Below, piece by piece: positions 2,955 to 33,981 of a stretch of DNA of 64,000 nucleotides. Within the stretch, counting starts at the first letter, position 1; the number at the start of each line of letters is the position of its first letter. The notes below the pieces were generated by a model. The model was not told the DNA's origin, ran no database searches, and worked only from the letters and a program-made list of their open reading frames with translations. Both the position numbers and the translations under genes were made by a program. Source of the DNA: Dehalococcoidia bacterium (GTDB taxonomy: Bacteria; Chloroflexota; Dehalococcoidia; Bin125); contig CBDBQC010000003.1 of the NCBI GenBank assembly GCA_965209205.1, positions 822,882-886,881 on the forward strand, given 5' to 3'.

Positions 2955-3110
2955 GGGGGCGCTCCGCTCCGACCTCACCCCCTGACTTCGGATATGACGG
3001 CGTGCGGTCGCGCGCCTGGGGCTCTCCATCTGGACGCTGGAGAGGGGGGACCGGAGGGGAACCTCACCCCTAGCCCCCTCTCCAGCTAAAGCGCTGGAGA
3101 GCCCCCGCCC
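2955..3110. repeat. Cluster of dispersed palindromic repeats (ACCTCACCCC...CCCCTCTCCA-loop-TGGAGAGGGG family)
   Basis: Hairpins at about 3022-3048 and 3061-3101; 2971-3050 is a near-exact inverted copy of about 33900-33980. Confidence 0.85.
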
Positions 3111-3335
3111 CGGGGGAGGGGGCTGCCGCGACGACGCCGATCGCCGCCGGCGCCCGGCACGCGCCCGGTGCGTGCACGATCTTGCACTCATATGCACGAA
3201 TTCAGCGGGTTGGGCTGGGAGTGACCGAGGAGTGGGACCGCGGTGGGCACGGACGGCGCACCGGTACACCCGCGGTCCGCGGGTCTCCATCGCAGTATAG
3301 CGGATGCTTGGCGACGTGGCCAGGCGGCGGCCGGA

Positions 3336-3482
3336 TCTCACCCCTTCACCCCCCTCTCCAGCGAAAGCGCTGGAGAGGGGGCTCGGGTCCCCTCTCCCCA
3401 GGGGAGAGGGGATCCGACCACATCCCTCCGGTCCCCCCTCTCCATCGCTTCAGATGGAGAGGGGGTTAGGGGGTGAGGTTCC
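3336..3482. repeat. Cluster of dispersed palindromic repeats upstream of SBP gene 1
   Basis: Three hairpins: CCCCTCTCCA..TGGAGAGGGG twice and TCCCCTCTCCCC-A-GGGGAGAGGGGA; 3435-3482 is an essentially exact inverted copy of about 33784-33831. Confidence 0.88.
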
Positions 3483-3554
3483 CCCGCGATCGCACGCCGG
3501 ACCCCCTGAGTGACACCGGGGGCCTTCCCACGGCGCCCGAATCCGAAAACTCCG

Positions 3555-3719
3555 GTGGATAACTGGCAAGTACCGTGGATAACCCCATAATTTCCTTCTT
3601 ACTTGACATAGGGGGGGGGGGGGGGGGGGGCTCGATTCTGGATGTGACATACTGCGTGTGCTCACCAGCCCGACGGTCCCCCGGGGGGACCAACGGTAGT
3701 TCCCGGAAAGGAACCGATC
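3555..3719 (+). promoter_or_regulatory. Conserved SBP promoter/leader, copy 1: GTGGATAAC x2, TTGACA, G20 tract, extended -10, two UTR hairpins
   Basis: GTGGATAAC at 3555 and 3575; TTGACA 3603-3608; G 3611-3630; TGaCATACT with CATACT at 3648-3653; the same layout recurs at 31103-31264. Confidence 0.7.
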
Positions 3720-6122
3720 ATGAGCACACCGAAGCATTGGACGACCCTGCGACAGCGAAAGATCTCGCGCCGCACCATGTTGGGAGCCAGCGCCAAAGCC
3801 GGCGTTGGAGCCGCCGGGCTGGCGCTCGTCGGCTGCGGCGACGACGACGAGCCCGACGCCGGGGCCGTGGCGGCGGAACGGGCCGCCTCGGCCGCGGAGG
3901 AGGCCGCCGCCGCGGCCATCGCCGCCGGCGAGGCGCGCGCGGCTGAGACTGAGGCTGCCGCGGACGCCGCCGCTGAGGCGGCTGCCGCCGCGTCCGAGGC
4001 CTCCGCCGCGGCTTCACAGGCGGCCGACGCGGCCGATGCGGCCGCCGCCCTGGCCGCCGAGGCGGCGGAGTCGGAGGACGCCGCCAACGCGGCCGCCGCC
4101 GCCGAAGCCGCGGCCGCGGCTGCTGCGGACGCTGCCGACGCCGCGTCCGCAGCTGGCGACGCCGCGGCCGCTGCCGTGGCGGACGCCGCCGCGCAGGCCG
4201 CTGAGGCCGCCGCCCAAGCCGCGCGCGACGCGGCCGCCGCGGTCGAGGCCGGTACCGCCACCGCCGCCGCAGCGCAGGCCGCCATCGACGGGGCCGCGGC
4301 CGCCGCGGCTGCCGCGGCCGAAGCCGCCGGGGAGGCGTCCGCGGCCGCCGGCGAGGCCGCCGCCACCGCGCAGGAGACCGCCGAAGCCGCGGCCGAGACC
4401 GCGGCCGCGGCCGTCGCCGCCGCCCAGGAGGCCGCCGAGGCGGCCGGGGAGGCCGCCAGCGCGGCTGCGGCCGCCGTCGAGGCCGGCATGGCCATGGCCG
4501 AGGACGCCGAGTTCTCGGTGCCCTGGCCGCTCGACCAGGTCGATCTGAACGCCACGATCGTCGTCGCGCACGACGCCGACGCCGGCGGCCTGGATCCGCG
4601 CAGCAGCGCCAGCTTCGCCAACGACTGGGCCGATGCCGCCGTCTTCAGCGCGGCCCTCCAACTGGATCCCCGCGATAACTCCGCGGCCGACCATCTCGCC
4701 GCGCCTGAGTGGATCGACCCCGCCACGATCCGGGCGGCGGTTGCCCTGGCGCCGTTCCACGACGGCTCGATCCTCACCGCCCACGACATGGCGTTCAGCC
4801 ACGACCGTGTGGCCGGACGCGCCGCCTATCACGACGGCGGCGCGACGACCGATCACCCCAGCGGCTGGGCCCCCGCGAACGCCTGGGCGATGGCGAACGT
4901 CGCCGGGAACGAGGCCGTGGACGATCGCACCTGGGCGATCGATCTCGTCACGCCGAATTTGGGCTTCCTCGCCGTCAGTCTGACCGCGGTCAGCAATACG
5001 TCAGTCATGTCGCGGGCGGACACGGAGCGGCGCGGCGACACCGCGGTGGACCAATCCTTGATGGGCACGGGCCCCTACCGCTTCGTCAGCCACACGGACG
5101 ACGAGGACTTCGTCTTCGAGCGCTTTGAGGACCACTTCCTCCCGATCGACCACCCCGTCCGGGTGCCGCACTACGCCCACAACCAACACCTGACCGTCCT
5201 GGTGCGCCCCGAGCTCCAGTCGCGTCTCGCCGGCCTCGAGGCCGGCGAGATCGACGCCGTGCCGGCCCTGGGCCCCACCGTCGTCGAGCCGTTCCTGGAC
5301 GACCCCGACTTCACCGTCCAGTTCGCCCCCTCCCTCTCGACGGCCATCCACAACCTCTATCCCAACTTGTGGACCCCGACGATGGACGACGGCAGCCCCA
5401 ACCCGTTCCTGGACGTCCGCGTCCGCCGGGCCGCGAACCACGCGATCAACCGCCAGTCCCTGATCGACAACCTCATGGCGGGCGTGGGGGGGCAGGCCTT
5501 CGTCGCGCACAGCAGCACCGAGGGCTTCCCGACGCCGGAGCAGTTGCAGGAAGTCACCTACGCCTACGACCCCGAGCGGGCGAGGCAACTCCTGGCCGAG
5601 GCGGGCTACCCGGACGGCTTCGATACCCCCCTGTACTGGACGCCCGATGTTGGCGGCCCGTCCGCGCCGGACATGGCGCTGGCCGTCGCGCAGGATCTGA
5701 CGGCGGTCGGCATCCGGATCGAGTCCGTGTCGCTCCCCAGCAGCGACTACTTCACCGACGAGTACATGCGCGGCAAAGAAGACGCCAAGCCGGGGCTGTG
5801 GTGGTTCTGGGGCAGCCCCATCCCCGACATCTCCCAGCCGTGGGAGTGTTGCGCCGGGCCGCGTGGCGATTGGGCGATCGCGGCGCCGCCGGACCCCGAC
5901 ATGGACGAGATGTACCTCGCGCAGTCCGTCGAACTCGATCGCGCGCGGCGCCTGGAGATGATCACTGAGTTCATCCTGGAGCACGCGCGGCGCGCGTACT
6001 ACGTCTTCCTCATCGAGCCGCCGGAAGCCGTCATGACCCGCAGCAACGTCAACTGGCCCAAGGGCGGGCCCTTCGGCCTCGTGGACTACACAAGCTCCTT
6101 CGCCATGCAGAAGCGCATCTGA
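3720..6122 (+). CDS. Tat lipoprotein with Ala-rich stalk and family-5 (peptide/nickel-type) ABC solute-binding domain, paralogue 1
   Basis: SRRTML Tat motif; LVGC lipobox (Cys39); about 210 aa Ala/Glu/Asp-rich segment; SBP_bac_5-like motifs FHDGS.LTAHD, GTGPYRF, DVRVRRAANHAINR and YDPERARQLLAEAGYPDGF. Confidence 0.9.
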   Translation: MSTPKHWTTLRQRKISRRTMLGASAKAGVGAAGLALVGCGDDDEPDAGAVAAERAASAAEEAAAAAIAAGEARAAETEAAADAAAEAAAAASEASAAASQAADAADAAAALAAEAAESEDAANAAAAAEAAAAAAADAADAASAAGDAAAAAVADAAAQAAEAAAQAARDAAAAVEAGTATAAAAQAAIDGAAAAAAAAAEAAGEASAAAGEAAATAQETAEAAAETAAAAVAAAQEAAEAAGEAASAAAAAVEAGMAMAEDAEFSVPWPLDQVDLNATIVVAHDADAGGLDPRSSASFANDWADAAVFSAALQLDPRDNSAADHLAAPEWIDPATIRAAVALAPFHDGSILTAHDMAFSHDRVAGRAAYHDGGATTDHPSGWAPANAWAMANVAGNEAVDDRTWAIDLVTPNLGFLAVSLTAVSNTSVMSRADTERRGDTAVDQSLMGTGPYRFVSHTDDEDFVFERFEDHFLPIDHPVRVPHYAHNQHLTVLVRPELQSRLAGLEAGEIDAVPALGPTVVEPFLDDPDFTVQFAPSLSTAIHNLYPNLWTPTMDDGSPNPFLDVRVRRAANHAINRQSLIDNLMAGVGGQAFVAHSSTEGFPTPEQLQEVTYAYDPERARQLLAEAGYPDGFDTPLYWTPDVGGPSAPDMALAVAQDLTAVGIRIESVSLPSSDYFTDEYMRGKEDAKPGLWWFWGSPIPDISQPWECCAGPRGDWAIAAPPDPDMDEMYLAQSVELDRARRLEMITEFILEHARRAYYVFLIEPPEAVMTRSNVNWPKGGPFGLVDYTSSFAMQKRI

Positions 6123-6130
6123 GGCGCGGG

Positions 6131-6217
6131 AACCTCACACCCTGCGCCAGGACCTCACCCCCGAACCCCCTCTCCAGCTGAAGCGCTGGAGAGGGGGCTC
6201 CGATCCCCTCTCCCCCA
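6131..6217. repeat. Palindromic repeat cluster downstream of SBP gene 1, interrupted by IS5
   Basis: ACCTCACCCCCGAACCCCCTCTCCAGCTGAAGCGCTGGAGAGGGGGCTCCGATCCCCTCTCCCCC is a direct copy of the 3336-3415 unit. Confidence 0.85.
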
Positions 6218-7386
6218 GGAGACCTTTGCGTAACTCCCCGGAAGCGGCAGAGTAAGTGGCGGGGGGACGGCAGCGGGAGGGCCGCATGTACCGCCAGACC
6301 GGGGAGCTCACGTTCGCGGACGCGATGATGGCCGAGGGGATGGGCCGCAACGCGGTGCTCGAACGGCTCGACGCCGCGCTCGACTGGGAGCGCATCGCCA
6401 CGATCGTCGGGGAGGTGCATGCGGCGCCGGAGGGCCGGCCCGCCTACCCGCCGCTGTCGATGCTCCGGATCATGCTCCTGCAGCAGTGGTTCGACGCCTC
6501 GGACCCGGCCATCGAAGAGGCGCTGCGCGACCGCATCTCGTTCCGCCGCTTCGCCCGGCTCGGCTGGGACGACGGCACCCCGGACCACTCGACGATCAGC
6601 CGCTTCCGCCACCAGCTCACCGGGCGCGGCCTCGCCGAGCGCGTGTTCGACGAAATCGCCCGCCAGCTCGACGCGCGGGGGCTGCTCGTCAAGGAGGGCA
6701 CGCTCCTGGACGCCACCCTCGTCGAGGCGGCGGTGCGGCGCCCGCCGTACGGGCGCGGCCCCGGCGCGCGCAGTGCGACCGACCCCGACGCCGCGTGGAC
6801 CCGCAAGGGCGGCCGCGCCGCCTTCGGCTACAAGGCGCACCTCGCGATGGACGGGGGCTCCGGCCTGATCCGCCGGGCGCTGCTGACGCCGGCGAACGTG
6901 AACGACACCGAGGTCGCCGACCGCTTGGTGAGCGGCGACGAGGCGGCGGTCTACGCCGACAAGGCGTACGAGTCGAAGGACCGGCGCGCGCGACTGCGGG
7001 CGCAGGGGGTCAAGGACCGGATCATGCACCGCGCGCACAAACACCAGCGGGCGCTGCCGCACTGGCAGCGGCGGCGCAACGCGCTGATCTCGCGGGTGCG
7101 GGCGCCGGTCGAGCAGGTCTTCGGGACGCTGAAGCGCAGCTACGGCTACCGGCGGGTGCGCTACACCGGCCTCGATCGCAACGCGACCGAGCTCTGGCTC
7201 AAGCTCTCGGCCTACAACCTGCGCCGCGCCGAACGCCTCCTCGCCGCGGCGTAGGCGCCGTGCGCCCGCCGCCCGCCGGCGCTCCGTAAGCGCCGCCCGT
7301 AACCGCCCACTCCCGCCTTCCCCGCGCCCCGATCCGCCCGGACGCCGCCCTTTTTCGCGCCCACCCCGAGTAACGCAAAGGTCTCC
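6218..7386 (+). mobile_element. IS5-family insertion sequence (1169 bp)
   Basis: 19-bp terminal inverted repeats GGAGACCTTTGCGTAACTC (6218-6236) and GAGTAACGCAAAGGTCTCC (7368-7386), one mismatch, enclosing an intact DDE transposase; no clear target duplication seen. Confidence 0.93.
6286..7254 (+). CDS. IS5-family DDE transposase
   Basis: GRPAYPPLSMLRIMLLQQWF, PDHSTISRFR, LLDATLV, DPDAAW..KG...FGYKAH, VYADKAY and RAPVEQVFGTLK motifs; ATG after GGGAGG. Confidence 0.94.
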   Translation: MYRQTGELTFADAMMAEGMGRNAVLERLDAALDWERIATIVGEVHAAPEGRPAYPPLSMLRIMLLQQWFDASDPAIEEALRDRISFRRFARLGWDDGTPDHSTISRFRHQLTGRGLAERVFDEIARQLDARGLLVKEGTLLDATLVEAAVRRPPYGRGPGARSATDPDAAWTRKGGRAAFGYKAHLAMDGGSGLIRRALLTPANVNDTEVADRLVSGDEAAVYADKAYESKDRRARLRAQGVKDRIMHRAHKHQRALPHWQRRRNALISRVRAPVEQVFGTLKRSYGYRRVRYTGLDRNATELWLKLSAYNLRRAERLLAAA

Positions 7387-7542: not shown

Positions 7543-7614
7543 ATGCCCGCGACGCCAACCCCGACGGGAGCCCCAGCCGCCGCGATCGTCGCGGCGGTGA
7601 CGATTGCGTCCTGA
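7543..7614 (+). CDS. Candidate attenuator leader peptide MPATPTPTGAPAAAIVAAVTIAS
   Basis: 23 codons with clustered Ile/Val/Thr codons, purine-rich RBS, an overlapping hairpin, located in the cimA leader. Confidence 0.4.
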   Translation: MPATPTPTGAPAAAIVAAVTIAS

Positions 7615-7726
7615 GCGGCGCTCGCCCCCGCGACCCCCGCACGGGTTCGCTCCCTCGCGTCCGCCCCCACCCCCGATCCCCCCGGCCCGCGCCGCCGACG
7701 GCGGCGCACGGCGCTTGGAGCGCGAC

Positions 7727-9369
<1,643 letters not shown>

Positions 9370-9373
<4 letters not shown>

Positions 9374-30986: not shown

Positions 30987-31027
30987 GACCGCACGCCGTC
31001 ATGTCCGCAGCGAGGGGGTGCGGTTCC
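30987..31027 (+). repeat. Repeat-family fragment at the left edge of SBP module 2
   Basis: 34/41 identical, in direct orientation, to 33941-33981 on the far side of the gene. Confidence 0.8.
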
Positions 31028-31101
31028 CCCGCGCGATCGCACGCCGGACCCCCTCAAGTGACCCTGTAGGGCGTCCCACGGCGCCCGAATCGGAAGAATC
31101 C

Positions 31102-31264
31102 TGTGGATAACTTTGCAAATACCGTGGATAACCACCTAATTTCCTTCTTCCTTGACATAGGGGGGGGGGGGGGGTGTCTCTATTGGATGTGTCATACTGC
31201 GCGTGCTCACCAGCCCGACGGTCCCCCGGGGGGACCAACGGTAGTTCCGCGAAAGGAACCGATC
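31102..31264 (+). promoter_or_regulatory. Conserved SBP promoter/leader, copy 2: GTGGATAAC x2, TTGACA, G15 tract, extended -10, two UTR hairpins
   Basis: TGTGGATAA at 31102-31110; GTGGATAAC at 31124; TTGACA 31152-31157; G 31160-31174; TGtCATACT with CATACT at 31193-31198. Confidence 0.7.
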
Positions 31265-33694
31265 ATGAGCATGCCGAAGTATTGGACGACCCTGCGACAG
31301 CGAAAGATCTCGCGTCGCACCATGTTGGGAGCCAGCGCGAAGGCTGGCGTTGGAGCGGCCGGCCTCGCCCTGGTCGGCTGCGGCGACGACGACGGGCCTG
31401 ACGCCGGGACCGCGGCGGCCGAACGGGCCGCCTCGGCCGCGGAGGAGGCCGCCGCCGCGGCCATCGCCGCCGGGGAGGCGCGCGCCGCCGAGACCGAGGC
31501 CGCCGCGGACGCCGCCGCTGAGGCGGCTGCCGCCGCGTCGGAGGCCTCCGCCGCGGCTTCCCAGGCGGCCGACGCGGCCGATGCGGCCGCCGCCCTGGCC
31601 GCCGAGGCGGCCGAGTCGGAGGACGCCGCCAACGCGGCCGCCGCCGCGGAAGCCGCCGCCGCGGCTGCCGCCGACGCGGCCGCCGCCGCATCCGCGGCCG
31701 GCGATCAGGCTGCCGCGGCCGTCGCCGCTGCCGCCGCCGAGGCGGCCGAGGCCGCCGCCCAGGCCGCCCGCGACGCGGCCGCGGCCGTCGAGGCCGGCAC
31801 CGCCACCGCCGCCGCCGCCCAGGCCGCGATCGACGAGGCCGCCGCTGCGGCGGCTGCCGCGGCCGAAGCCGCCGGCGAGGCGTCCGCCGCCGCCGGGCAG
31901 GCCGCCGCCACCGCACAGGAGACCGCCGAAGCCGCGGCCGAGACCGCCGCTGCGGCGGTCGCCGCGGCCGAAGAGGCCGCCGATGCGGCCCGCGAGGCCG
32001 CCGACGCCGTTGAGCAGACGAGGAACGTCGCCGCCTCCTTGACCGCCGAGGCCGAGTTCGTGGAGTGGAGCGTGCCCTGGCCGATCGACGAGATCGACCT
32101 GGACGCCACGATCACCTTCGCTATCCCCGCCGACACGGGGGGCCTGGATCCGCAACGGGTCGGCAGTGATTCGAACTTCACCTCGCACTCGGCCGTCCAC
32201 GACAGCCTCGTGGAGATCTCGCCCCTGACCAAGGATCTGCTCCCGCATCTCGCCACGCTGGAGTGGGCCGACGAGGGCGCCACGTGCATCGGCACCGTCA
32301 ACGGGGCGATGTTCCACGACGGCTCCATGCTCACCGCCCACGACTTGGTCTTCACCTACGACCGCATGGGCGGCGTCGCCGAATACCACCAGGGCGGCGA
32401 GACGAGCGACCACCCGGCCGGCTGGCAATCCGTGCGGCCGATTTGGGGGGCCTCTTACTGGCTCCGCAACGAGGCGGTCGACGACACCACCTGGGTGATC
32501 GAGCTGCCGGACTTCGACGCGAGCCTCTGGGGCACCATCGGCATCGCCCCCAATGTGATGGTCATGTCCCAGGCGGACGTCGAGCGGCGCGGCGATCACG
32601 CGGTGGATAACCACCCGATCGGCACGGGGCCCTTCCGCTTCGTCAGCCACACCGACGAAGAGGACTTCGTCTTCGAGCGCTTCGAGGACCACTTCAATCC
32701 GGTCGACCACCCCATCCGGGTGCCGCACTACCCCCACCACAAGGACCTGATCGCTCTGGTGCGCCCCGAGTTGCAGTCGCGCATCGCCGGCATCGAAGCG
32801 GGCGAGATCGACGCGGCCGCGGAGTTGGGCGTCAACGCCGTCGCGCCGTTCCTCGACGACCCCGACTTCACGGTCCAGTTCGTCCCCGGGCTGGGGTGGG
32901 CGCTGCACAACATCTACCCCAACCTCTGGAGGGAGACGCGGGACGACGGCACGCCCAACCCGTGGATGGACGAGCGCGTCCGCATCGCCGCGAACCTGTC
33001 CATCAACCGCGCGGCCATCGCCGAAGGCCTGCTGCTGGGCGCGCCGCCGATCGAGCCCATGTATGGGTTCCGCGGCGTCGTGGGCTACCCCAGCGAGGAG
33101 GACGCGCGGGCGGCGGACTGGGGCTACGACCCCGATCGGGCGCGGGCGCTGCTCGCGGAGGCCGGCTACCCGGACGGCTTCGACGAGACGCTGTACTACA
33201 CGACCGACTGGGGCGGCGACCTCCAGGAAGACCTCGCGCTGACCACGGCGCAGATGCTGACCGCGGCCGGCATCCGGACCACCCCCGTCTTGCTCCCCGG
33301 AGGCGAGTACTTCACCGACGCCTACGCCCGCGGCGGTCCGACGGGGACCGCTCCCGTCGGGCTCTATTGGTGGTGGGCGAACAACCAGGCGGACGCCGGC
33401 GTGATGTGGACCTGCTGCGCCAACTCCGAGGGCTTCTTCACCATGGCGATCCATGGCGACCCGGTCCTCGACGAGCTCTTCTCGCAGAGCAAGGTCGAGC
33501 GCGATCCCGAGCGGCGCAACGAGCTCACCTCGGAGTTGTTCCTGCGGCACAAGCGGGGCGCCTGGTTCATCAACGTCATCGAGCCGCCGGACGGCGTGCT
33601 CACCCGCGGCGACGTCAACTGGCCGGTGGGTGGACCCTTCGGCGGGCTCAGCTTCCTCAACACGTACTCCATCCAGAAGCGCCGGGCCACCTAA
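31265..33694 (+). CDS. Tat lipoprotein with Ala-rich stalk and family-5 ABC solute-binding domain, paralogue 2
   Basis: Same Tat motif, lipobox and stalk as 3720-6122; FHDGSMLTAHD, GTGPFRF and YDPDRARALLAEAGYPDGF motifs. Confidence 0.9.
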   Translation: MSMPKYWTTLRQRKISRRTMLGASAKAGVGAAGLALVGCGDDDGPDAGTAAAERAASAAEEAAAAAIAAGEARAAETEAAADAAAEAAAAASEASAAASQAADAADAAAALAAEAAESEDAANAAAAAEAAAAAAADAAAAASAAGDQAAAAVAAAAAEAAEAAAQAARDAAAAVEAGTATAAAAQAAIDEAAAAAAAAAEAAGEASAAAGQAAATAQETAEAAAETAAAAVAAAEEAADAAREAADAVEQTRNVAASLTAEAEFVEWSVPWPIDEIDLDATITFAIPADTGGLDPQRVGSDSNFTSHSAVHDSLVEISPLTKDLLPHLATLEWADEGATCIGTVNGAMFHDGSMLTAHDLVFTYDRMGGVAEYHQGGETSDHPAGWQSVRPIWGASYWLRNEAVDDTTWVIELPDFDASLWGTIGIAPNVMVMSQADVERRGDHAVDNHPIGTGPFRFVSHTDEEDFVFERFEDHFNPVDHPIRVPHYPHHKDLIALVRPELQSRIAGIEAGEIDAAAELGVNAVAPFLDDPDFTVQFVPGLGWALHNIYPNLWRETRDDGTPNPWMDERVRIAANLSINRAAIAEGLLLGAPPIEPMYGFRGVVGYPSEEDARAADWGYDPDRARALLAEAGYPDGFDETLYYTTDWGGDLQEDLALTTAQMLTAAGIRTTPVLLPGGEYFTDAYARGGPTGTAPVGLYWWWANNQADAGVMWTCCANSEGFFTMAIHGDPVLDELFSQSKVERDPERRNELTSELFLRHKRGAWFINVIEPPDGVLTRGDVNWPVGGPFGGLSFLNTYSIQKRRAT

Positions 33695-33726
33695 GGCCCC
33701 GCCTCCTGGCGGATCGCGGCGATCGG

Positions 33727-33981
33727 AACCCCACCCCCTGCCCCCCTCTCCATCCAAAAGCATGGAGAGGGGGAACGGAGGGGGAACCTCACCCCCTAAC
33801 CCCCTCTCCATCTGAAGCGATGGAGAGGGGGAAGCGGAAGGGGAGTAGAGCGGAGCGCCGACCCCGGGGCGCTCCGCTCTACTCCCAAGTCCTCCGATCC
33901 CCCCTCTCCATTGCTCTGCAATGGAGAGCCCCAGGCGCGCGACCGCACGCCGTCATATCTGAGGTTAGGGGGTGAGGTTCC
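33727..33981. repeat. Mosaic of palindromic repeats downstream of SBP gene 2
   Basis: Three CCCCTCTCCA-loop-TGGAGAG hairpins plus a perfect 19-bp stem GGGAGTAGAGCGGAGCGCC (33841-33859) / GGCGCTCCGCTCTACTCCC (33868-33886). Confidence 0.9.

Follow-up and report, generated by a model that had tools for sequence, protein, structure and literature searches.

The locus analysed here raises the question of why two lipoproteins should be nearly identical over a signal peptide and a low-complexity linker and far less alike over the folded domain that follows. Both are encoded in a 64,000-nucleotide (nt) stretch of a Dehalococcoidia bacterium (assembly GCA_965209205.1, contig CBDBQC010000003.1, positions 822,882 to 886,881 of the forward strand), hereafter called the window, and both open reading frames (ORFs) are present: ORF A at 3720-6122, encoding 800 amino acids (aa), and ORF B at 31265-33694, encoding 809 aa, for which the start homologous to that of ORF A is the ATG at 31265. 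Each protein consists of a signal peptide, an alanine-rich stalk and a head of the solute-binding protein (SBP) family SBP_bac_5 (PF00496). The results described below make it likely that such genes are assembled from two parts, a concertedly evolving cassette that comprises promoter, signal and stalk, and heads that are replaced as units by recombination. The coding parts of the two genes are as follows.

3720..3836, + strand: signal peptide of ORF A (aa 1-39), with a long n-region, S-R-R-T-M-L-G, a Gly/Ala-rich h-region and the lipobox L-V-G-C with Cys39
3837..4469, + strand: stalk of ORF A (aa 40 to ~250), 62% Ala, net charge -35, predicted to form three long helices
4470..6122, + strand: head of ORF A, SBP_bac_5 (peptide/nickel/opine family in the broad sense), with the stop codon; the exchanged unit
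31265..31381, + strand: signal peptide and lipobox of ORF B (aa 1-39)
31382..32008, + strand: stalk of ORF B (aa 40-248)
32009..33694, + strand: head of ORF B, SBP_bac_5, with the stop codon

In a global protein alignment, ORFs A and B were 90-100% identical in each 40-residue block over residues 1-240 and 27-78% identical beyond, with about 95% identity over residues 1-245 as a whole. The heads were 50.8% identical in protein, in agreement with the initial annotation, which had judged them roughly half identical by eye. Its description of signal and stalk as almost identical held for the protein but not for the DNA, which is only ~90% identical across these two parts. The DNA-level homology does extend upstream as had been noted, and begins at 3468 and 31013, exactly on the inverted arm of a repetitive extragenic palindromic (REP)-like element. 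Both heads matched SBP_bac_5 (ORF A, 170 bits, E 1e-49; ORF B, 139 bits, E 2e-40; Pfam gathering cut-off 32.4 bits).

The two ORFs had been taken as a pair, and instead belong to a family of about 39 genes that is found across the whole taxonomic family. In what follows, G000 is the genome holding the window (2.71 Mb, ~72% G+C, four contigs), G001 and G004 are sister genomes, M-numbers are family members in G000 and L-numbers are loci in other genomes. Collecting the paralogues with the same N-terminus by tblastn with residues 1-45 of ORF A gave 43 signal loci in G000, hence not just two copies, on all four contigs; 37 of them were at least 74% identical and followed the pattern ...YWTxLRQRKISRRTMLGASAKAGVGAAGLALVGCGDDD. 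The family copies are scattered, with no single cluster. Of the ~44 SBP_bac_5 genes in G000, ~39 bear a related signal; in three others the lipoprotein signal is of the ordinary Sec type, and in one the cassette is truncated at its 5' end. Every near-identical-signal member tested carried an SBP_bac_5 head (A, B and 18 others tested by profile). The twin-arginine (RR) signal was found in 25 of 25 genomes of the same taxonomic family, at 4-61 copies each, with 53-61 copies in the complete genomes of the genus. In three members, M14 (C3:77518-78621), M21 (C3:228626-229603) and M02 (C1:163547-165889), the head continues in another frame; these are either pseudogenes or homopolymer errors of the assembly.

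The part common to the core members is a cassette of ~1 kb that holds a promoter, a homopolymer tract, a leader hairpin, a ribosome-binding site (RBS), the RR signal, the lipobox and the acidic Ala-rich stalk. In about 20 members whose heads are unrelated in DNA, a stretch that starts near -300 or -100 and reaches to about +740-780 was homologous to ORF A, with 86-91% identity, and mean pairwise identity across the family dropped from ~0.9 to ~0.5 at +738 nt, the stalk/head junction. The head lineages are ancient, some being ~25% identical to one another and as close to Escherichia coli GsiB as to each other (the M10 head scored 98 bits with GsiB and 83 bits with the ORF A head), so that an ordinary recent duplication was rejected as the origin of the family.

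For nine G000 genes, G001 or G004 contained a head with 92-99% protein identity. These pairs were chosen by best head identity, a selection effect that has to be set against our reading, though it is unable to push divergence below that of the genomic backbone. DNA identity and synonymous divergence (pS) of the successive parts of the matched pairs were the following.

Proximal upstream: DNA identity mostly 62-82%, pS not applicable
Signal: DNA identity 86-91%, pS 0.05-0.32
Stalk: DNA identity 85-93%, pS 0.21-0.36
Head: DNA identity 94-100%, pS 0.008-0.096

Backbone pS for the same genomes, taken from 20 flanking ORFs, had 0.139 as its median and 0.105 as its lowest value. Since the pS of the heads falls below that of the backbone, the heads are younger than the split of the genomes, and the attached stalks are not their historical partners. 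Stalk pS in the matched pairs equalled that between paralogous stalks (0.26), and lay below an estimated saturation of ~0.55 derived from Ala codon usage. Only between paralogues, therefore, is the linker better conserved than the folded domain, as had been proposed; in head-matched pairs the stalk is far more diverged than the head, and what had looked like the reverse of the usual pattern arose because anciently diverged heads were being compared.

Positional information pointed in the same direction. The matched-head pairs were not syntenic, and the term orthologue was dropped for them for this reason. At five loci both flanks were syntenic, and the head differed in all five. The head type of ORF A (M33-type) is found in G001 at L045 (97% identical), where it adjoins the upstream flank of G000's M18 locus; an M37-type head in G001 occupies the M29 locus; and the leuB-cimA locus of ORF A holds in G001 an M34-like head (L066) that is 82% identical to the head of ORF B, whose nearest heads in G000 are M05 (85%) and M03 (83%). 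Positional partners retained 93-99% identity up to about -300, with signal and stalk at pool level only. Two whole modules of 2.8-2.9 kb occupied sites at which the G000 sequence runs on with no or almost no interruption. Of the sister-genome heads sampled, only some one-third had a counterpart of at least 90% identity in G000. Taken together, the heads are exchanged units with separate, more recent histories, and have moved between loci and between genomes.

In the matched pairs, sliding identity jumped to 97-100% between about +660 and +835. In orphan genes, which lack a nearby permease gene, the high identity ended at the stop codon or ~75 nt beyond it, and in operon members it continued into the operon. 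A junction of this kind could also be produced by an integron- or shufflon-like recombinase that exchanges heads at a fixed stalk/head site, and both the sharpness of the boundary and the palindromic element that follows most heads, as attC does in integron cassettes, would suit such an enzyme. The breakpoints are spread over the whole interval just given, however, and no conserved junction motif was present, identity simply decaying past +738. Furthermore, no promoterless silent heads were found among the SBP_bac_5 genes of G000, and no recombinase was linked to the loci, though no systematic search for one was made. We consider site-specific exchange very improbable.

The cassette had a different history from the heads. 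Trees were built from 50 long-stalk genes of three genomes, and the number of genome-label changes was compared with that obtained with shuffled labels (~20, minima 14-16). The cassette tree required 6 changes, upstream plus signal 5 and the stalk alone 11, while the head tree required 25; the cassette tree thus clusters by genome and the head tree pairs genomes. The separate stalk and head trees that the initial annotation had called for thus grouped the genes differently. Over upstream and signal, identity to the head-matched partner was 76-85%, and 10-28 paralogues of the same genome were closer. Within the signal and stalk of the 20 long-stalk G000 copies, which align essentially gap-free, 54% of site pairs among 117 informative sites failed the four-gamete test, the minimum number of recombination events (Rm) was at least 54, and a statistic like the pairwise homoplasy index (PHI) was below all 1000 permutations (0/1000). 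In agreement with this, amino-acid block variants of the stalk recurred in differing combinations across genomes. These results show that the cassette evolves in concert, as a recombination mosaic.

Conservation of the cassette might instead reflect selection only, an old and constrained N-terminus for export, anchoring and spacing having been passed on through vertical duplications with no recombination between copies. The signal is indeed conserved across the whole taxonomic family and beyond, and in the paralogue stalks nucleotide diversity by codon position was 0.027/0.039/0.243, with a ratio of non-synonymous to synonymous divergence (pN/pS) of 0.15. The stalk peptide is under purifying selection, and ~135 of its columns were invariant in 27 copies from three genomes. 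However, non-coding upstream DNA and synonymous sites are shared as well, same-genome paralogues cluster, mosaicism is strong, and stalks on near-identical heads differ to the extent listed above for the matched pairs. Purifying selection alone was rejected on the grounds of the shared synonymous and non-coding sites and the clustering of the cassette by genome, and we regard it as extremely unlikely. The constant promoter-signal-stalk cassette homogenised by recombination, with interchangeable heads, that had been proposed from the two window genes turned out to be more literal than suggested: heads are swapped from locus to locus and also across sister genomes, and on the 5' side the break falls where the stalk ends.

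The non-coding part of the cassette and the repeats that border it were mapped in the window as follows.

3424..3482, - strand: REP-like element upstream of module A, with hairpin CCCCTCTCCAT..ATGGAGAGGGG and arm AGGGGGTGAGGTTCC (3468-3482), the arm being the exact 5' start of the A/B homology
3468..3719, + strand: promoter and leader of cassette A, no Rfam family, with the RBS GGAAAGGAA
3555-3563 and 3575-3583, + strand: direct GTGGATAAC boxes of cassette A
3611-3630, + strand: poly-G of cassette A (G20)
3675-3691, + strand: palindrome GGTCCCCCGGGGGGACC of cassette A
6129..6197, + strand: REP-like element after the ORF A stop, with arm GGAACCTCACACCCT at 6129-6143 and then the hairpin, the inverted counterpart of the upstream arm
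31013..31264, + strand: promoter and leader of cassette B, starting at the inverted REP arm 31013-31027, RBS present
31103-31111 and 31124-31132, + strand: GTGGATAAC boxes of cassette B
31160-31174, + strand: poly-G of cassette B (G15)
31220-31236, + strand: palindrome of cassette B
33725..33842, + strand: two REP-like elements after the ORF B stop, arms at 33725-33739 and 33783-33797

The upstream elements follow the order two direct GTGGATAAC boxes, a TTGGTA-17-CATAAT pair, TTGACA, poly-G, a CATACT box, palindrome GGTCCCCCGGGGGGACC and a strong RBS. The palindrome has a variant class, GGTCCCACATGGGAC, a second upstream class diverges 5' of the poly-G run, and the sister genomes have further upstream versions, including an otherwise different one with poly-C. 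These elements are largely confined to the family. All ten perfect TTATCCACA 9-mers of the genome fall in cassette upstream regions, as do 33 of the 41 TTATCCAC 8-mers of the 2.7-Mb genome in SBP promoters, and 20 of the 28 genomic G/C homopolymer runs of at least 10 nt sit 92-100 nt upstream of a family ATG. The eight other runs are at C1:68635, C3:49745, C3:95846, C3:895225, C4:230714 (G32), C4:313894, C4:313905 and C4:675721. Read on the other strand, the two GTGGATAAC boxes give the classical DnaA-box consensus, and they could be sites for a dedicated regulator or serve in DnaA titration. An Rfam scan of 3300-3900 gave nothing above the gathering score, with hairpin-like noise on the REP element only.

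Each of the two window modules opens with an inverted REP-like arm and has a mirror arm after the stop. The arm occurs 98 times in the whole genome and nevertheless follows 17 of 31 family stops (chance expectation 0.2% per gene); it is enriched upstream of the cassettes too. This arrangement is what would be expected if the SBP gene and its cassette were cargo between inverted arms, moved whole by a trans-acting REP-associated transposase or nuclease. Such transposition would account for the changes of locus and the empty sites; the arms stand exactly at the homology borders of both window modules and are strongly enriched on both sides of family genes, and the whole-module insertions at sites empty in G000 include one whose 3' junction lies inside a REP element. 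Both arms were present in just 8 of the 31 members, however, and neither target-site duplication nor terminal inverted repeats were seen at the two whole-module insertions inspected, one of which had no REP element at either junction. Movement of whole modules would also leave unexplained the differing histories of head and cassette within one gene, and the mosaic stalks. A mobile module therefore appears unlikely, and replacement of heads behind a cassette that recombines separately remains our preferred reading.

Besides the copies bordering the two modules (3424-3485, 6152-6197 and 33725-33842), further REP-like copies in the window are found at 3022-3101, 3337-3381 and 33891-33981 (hairpin CCCCTCTCCAT..ATGGAGAGGGG with arm GGTTAGGGGGTGAGGTTCC); the genome has about 100 copies in all. 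One SBP_bac_5 gene of G000 (C3:454900-456534), the neighbour of a permease pair, lacks the 5' portion of the cassette, including the signal, and its stalk starts mid-way, immediately after REP-like sequence. A 332-aa ORF at window 6256-7254 (+ strand), by eye like a DDE transposase of the IS5/IS4 family of insertion sequences (IS), sits between the 3' REP element of module A and a cimA/leuA-like gene at 7604-9373; this IS element may be specific to G000, because the syntenic locus of the sister genome maps straight onto the cimA side.

Besides its high alanine content and negative charge, the stalk contains no Lys and just 3 Arg among 207 residues, and its acidic residues are periodic at 3.60, above the 95% level of shuffled sequences, not at 3.5; it therefore has the features of neither an ER/K single alpha-helix nor a heptad coiled coil. 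An AlphaFold model of the stalk alone (27 sequences) had a predicted local distance difference test score (pLDDT) of 83 and a predicted template modelling score (pTM) of 0.64, and contained helices of 72, 56 and 80 residues (residues 47-118, 121-176 and 182-261 of ORF A) joined by turns of 2 and 5 residues. The structure prediction that had been recommended thus returned a helical stalk and not a disordered one. The single helix of ~30 nm envisaged by the initial annotation was rejected, since the better model has two tight turns. The helix lengths and the two turns suggest an antiparallel three-helix rod of ~10-12 nm, which may act as a spacer with an acidic stripe and keep the head at a distance from the membrane, within the wall or at it. 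The genome encodes four penicillin-binding protein (PBP) transpeptidases, and no S-layer homology (SLH) domains were found in it.

The signal and the machinery that would process it were also examined. The motif I-S-R-R-T-M-L-G, which follows a 16-residue n-region and precedes the Gly/Ala-rich h-region, is invariant in 37 copies, and the lipobox with Cys39 is invariant across the core family. The genome encodes TatC (198 bits, C4:273222-273854), Lgt (PF01790, 149 bits) and the signal peptidase II LspA (PF01252, 120 bits). As a further sign of concerted evolution, the start of the protein differs between genomes, G000 copies mostly beginning with MS[TM]PK[HY]W and the sampled G001 copies with MS[ADRT]RN[HY]W or MSRLNHW. 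In other genera of the taxonomic family (loci L080-L109), what comes after the same RR signal and lipobox is a low-complexity linker of ~50-110 aa, rich in Gln or in Glu, Gln and Ala, which indicates that the fixed-sequence Ala-rich stalk is genus-specific. The composition of the tether thus differs by genus while the signal is unchanged.

Several of our results weigh against the account given so far. The Tat-signal models PF10518 and TIGR01409 did not match the 60 N-terminal residues at E <= 10, this region matching only MelC1, a chaperone exported by Tat, and that weakly (E 0.073), and the putative assignment to the twin-arginine translocation (Tat) pathway derives from the motif alone. The length of the stalk falls into classes of ~210-225 aa (20 full-length members and two truncated ones), ~170, 145, 110, 50 and ~0 aa; with a range of 5-235 aa within the family, a long stalk is not a general requirement of the envelope. 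As for the rod, whose predicted bundle geometry and length derive from helices and turns, the full-length AlphaFold model (15 sequences) was poor (pLDDT 43), and a Foldseek search of the stalk model against the PDB gave no significant neighbour (best E 0.48). The analysis pointed to no recombination machinery and to no route or direction by which heads are donated, recombinases not having been searched for systematically. Finally, all the genomes are metagenome-assembled genomes (MAGs), in which mis-joins or polishing cross-talk may occur among numerous repeats that are 90% alike.

This last point could be taken further, to the view that mosaic cassettes and displaced heads are produced by mis-assembly, cross-polishing or strain mixing, and the frameshifts in M02, M14 and M21 do suggest that some consensus errors are present. 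However, the contigs are of megabase to chromosome scale, so that repeats of ~1 kb should be resolved, and a different head between two syntenic flanks needs two precise mis-joins within 2.4 kb at each of many loci in three independent assemblies, which makes mis-joins unlikely. Variation confined to third positions and genome-specific signal variants are likewise not the product of assembly errors. An artefact is, in our estimation, highly unlikely as the source of the pattern, and we retain the reading of a recombining cassette with exchangeable heads.

The genomic context of the family bears on what the heads do. A permease gene lies within 5 kb of 22 members, 19 of which adjoin a permease pair, and for this reason we regard the family as ordinary ATP-binding cassette (ABC) importer receptors. 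About 17 members, A and B included, are orphans; in support of the earlier remark that neither window gene has an adjacent permease, the closest PF00528 (permease) matches were 72 kb from ORF A and 44.5 kb from ORF B. The likelier reading is that the two orphans probably share, and feed, permeases encoded with operon-linked paralogues whose heads fall in the same cluster as theirs; judging by head similarity, candidate sources for ORF A would be the M23, M35 and M12 operons (heads 57-67% identical to its own). The nature of the ligand was not revealed by profiles: no NCBIfam equivalog (ligand subfamily) was obtained for A and B (best <=60 bits) or for any head of the family (best <=114 bits; cut-offs 393-1098 bits). 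The relatives of the heads in the PDB include DppA, GsiB, HbpA and OppA, and a homologue search with the head returned only stalked SBPs of the same lineage, with no functional lead. Four outliers with a more divergent RR signal and lipobox carry non-SBP domains, with little or no Ala-rich stalk of the family type (5-84 residues by a composition rule).

C1:100815-102521 (M01): alpha/beta hydrolase lipoprotein with divergent signal
C2:299134-301062 (M11): PAP2/VCPO-like lipoprotein with divergent signal
C3:550840-551997 (M26): peptidase M23 lipoprotein with divergent signal
C3:810898-812118 (M32): sulfite-oxidase-like molybdenum (Mo) enzyme (Mo-oxidoreductase) with divergent signal

The following mechanism would fit these results. 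The cassette copies would be kept alike within a genome by homologous recombination between loci, through short-patch gene conversion and larger replacements, with the stalk peptide held constant by purifying selection. The heads would behave as discrete alleles that are replaced whole, between loci and between related genomes, with the cassette as 5' homology arm and the crossover in the distal stalk; at the 3' end, the exchange would finish at the stop codon, at the REP-like repeat, or with the downstream permease operon as 3' arm. A head arriving behind the cassette might gain the same expression, export, lipid anchoring and membrane spacing at once, and such plug-and-play heads could allow a fast turnover of the repertoire of uptake receptors.

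More tentatively, the family might represent a 'gene-cassette economy' of nutrient receptors that works by protein fusion, with docking platforms at dozens of loci, circulating heads, tunable promoters and a new spacer; we regard this as possible but rather doubtful. If it were true, heads without promoter or signal would circulate among co-occurring lineages and be functional wherever they recombined behind a platform, and the homopolymer tracts of the promoters would let single loci be dialled up or down. Substrate range would then be managed in the manner of an integron or a contingency locus, in a non-pathogen that is free-living or symbiotic, and the Ala-rich three-helix stalk would be a new envelope spacer.

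In this small genome, from a lineage that is abundant and uncultured, the family makes up ~1.5-2% of all genes. The exchange of heads offers a mechanism for rapid turnover of substrate range, and cassettes of this type mislead orthology calls, synteny analysis and MAG assembly. The stalk is a natural case of a low-complexity-looking linker that is actually fixed, selected and probably folded, and could serve protein engineering as a defined rigid spacer.

Parts of this design are known from other systems. In the vpma, vsp and vlp lipoprotein families of Mycoplasma, the 5' untranslated and signal-peptide coding regions are conserved and the mature parts differ (PMC2268961). The conservation of these regions across the members of M. 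agalactiae vpma, M. bovis vsp and M. hyorhinis vlp resembles that seen here, but the Mycoplasma families form one clustered locus each, are varied by an Xer-type site-specific recombinase or tract slippage, and serve antigenic variation in pathogens. Here, in contrast, ~40 genes are dispersed, the conserved part reaches through a 210-aa stalk that is predicted to be folded, the variable part is an ABC-transporter binding domain, and heads seem to be exchanged by homologous recombination. A homopolymer tract is also present in the promoters of the vlp genes. In the lpl cluster of Staphylococcus aureus, a conserved sequence within each paralogue serves as a site of homologous recombination, and the two halves of the ORF have incongruent phylogenies (Tsuru & Kobayashi, 2008, PMC2568036). 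An internal conserved block and incongruent halves of one ORF are what the two systems have in common, although the lpl genes are in tandem in one genomic island with an exchange unit that spans two adjacent ORFs, whereas the copies described here are dispersed, the conserved block is the 5' end with its promoter, and heads also cross genomes.

In the CdiA-CT/Rhs polymorphic toxins and the pilE/pilS cassettes, a constant N-terminus provides the homology for swapping a C-terminal domain at a sharp boundary. Unlike these systems, the present family has no VENN-type demarcation motif, immunity genes or silent donor cassettes, every copy looks like an intact and expressed gene, and what is exchanged is a nutrient receptor. 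A palindromic REP-like element after most heads recalls integron cassettes, but the breakpoints are not at a fixed site. Orphan SBPs that share one permease are represented by pneumococcal AmiA/AliA/AliB and Borrelia OppA1-5, and the lipid-anchored SBPs of monoderms and archaea likewise join a lipobox-anchored SBP_bac_5 domain to a linker, with extra receptors encoded away from the permease loci. The known linkers of such proteins are ~20-40 aa, disordered and not conserved, whereas the one described here is ~210 aa, predicted to be helical, fixed in sequence, under purifying selection and common to more than 20 paralogues. Braun's lipoprotein Lpp is an alanine-zipper coiled coil that sets envelope spacing, 58 aa long, with a trimeric heptad, linked to peptidoglycan and headless. 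It resembles the stalk in being a helical rod, rich in Ala and anchored by a lipid, with a length that might fix a spacing within the envelope, but the stalk differs in its periodicity of 3.6 instead of 3.5, in its predicted intramolecular three-helix unit and in having no significant structural match.

In open-access papers and preprints we found no account of SBPs with Ala-rich stalks, nor of heads being swapped in Chloroflexi. None of the systems compared joins dispersed ABC-receptor genes, a selected helical stalk within the constant part and the exchange of heads between genomes. The design itself is known from the surface antigens of pathogens, and as far as we could find it has had no earlier account for nutrient uptake; with the family described here, the modular recombination design of pathogen antigens and polymorphic toxins would extend to the receptors of ABC importers.

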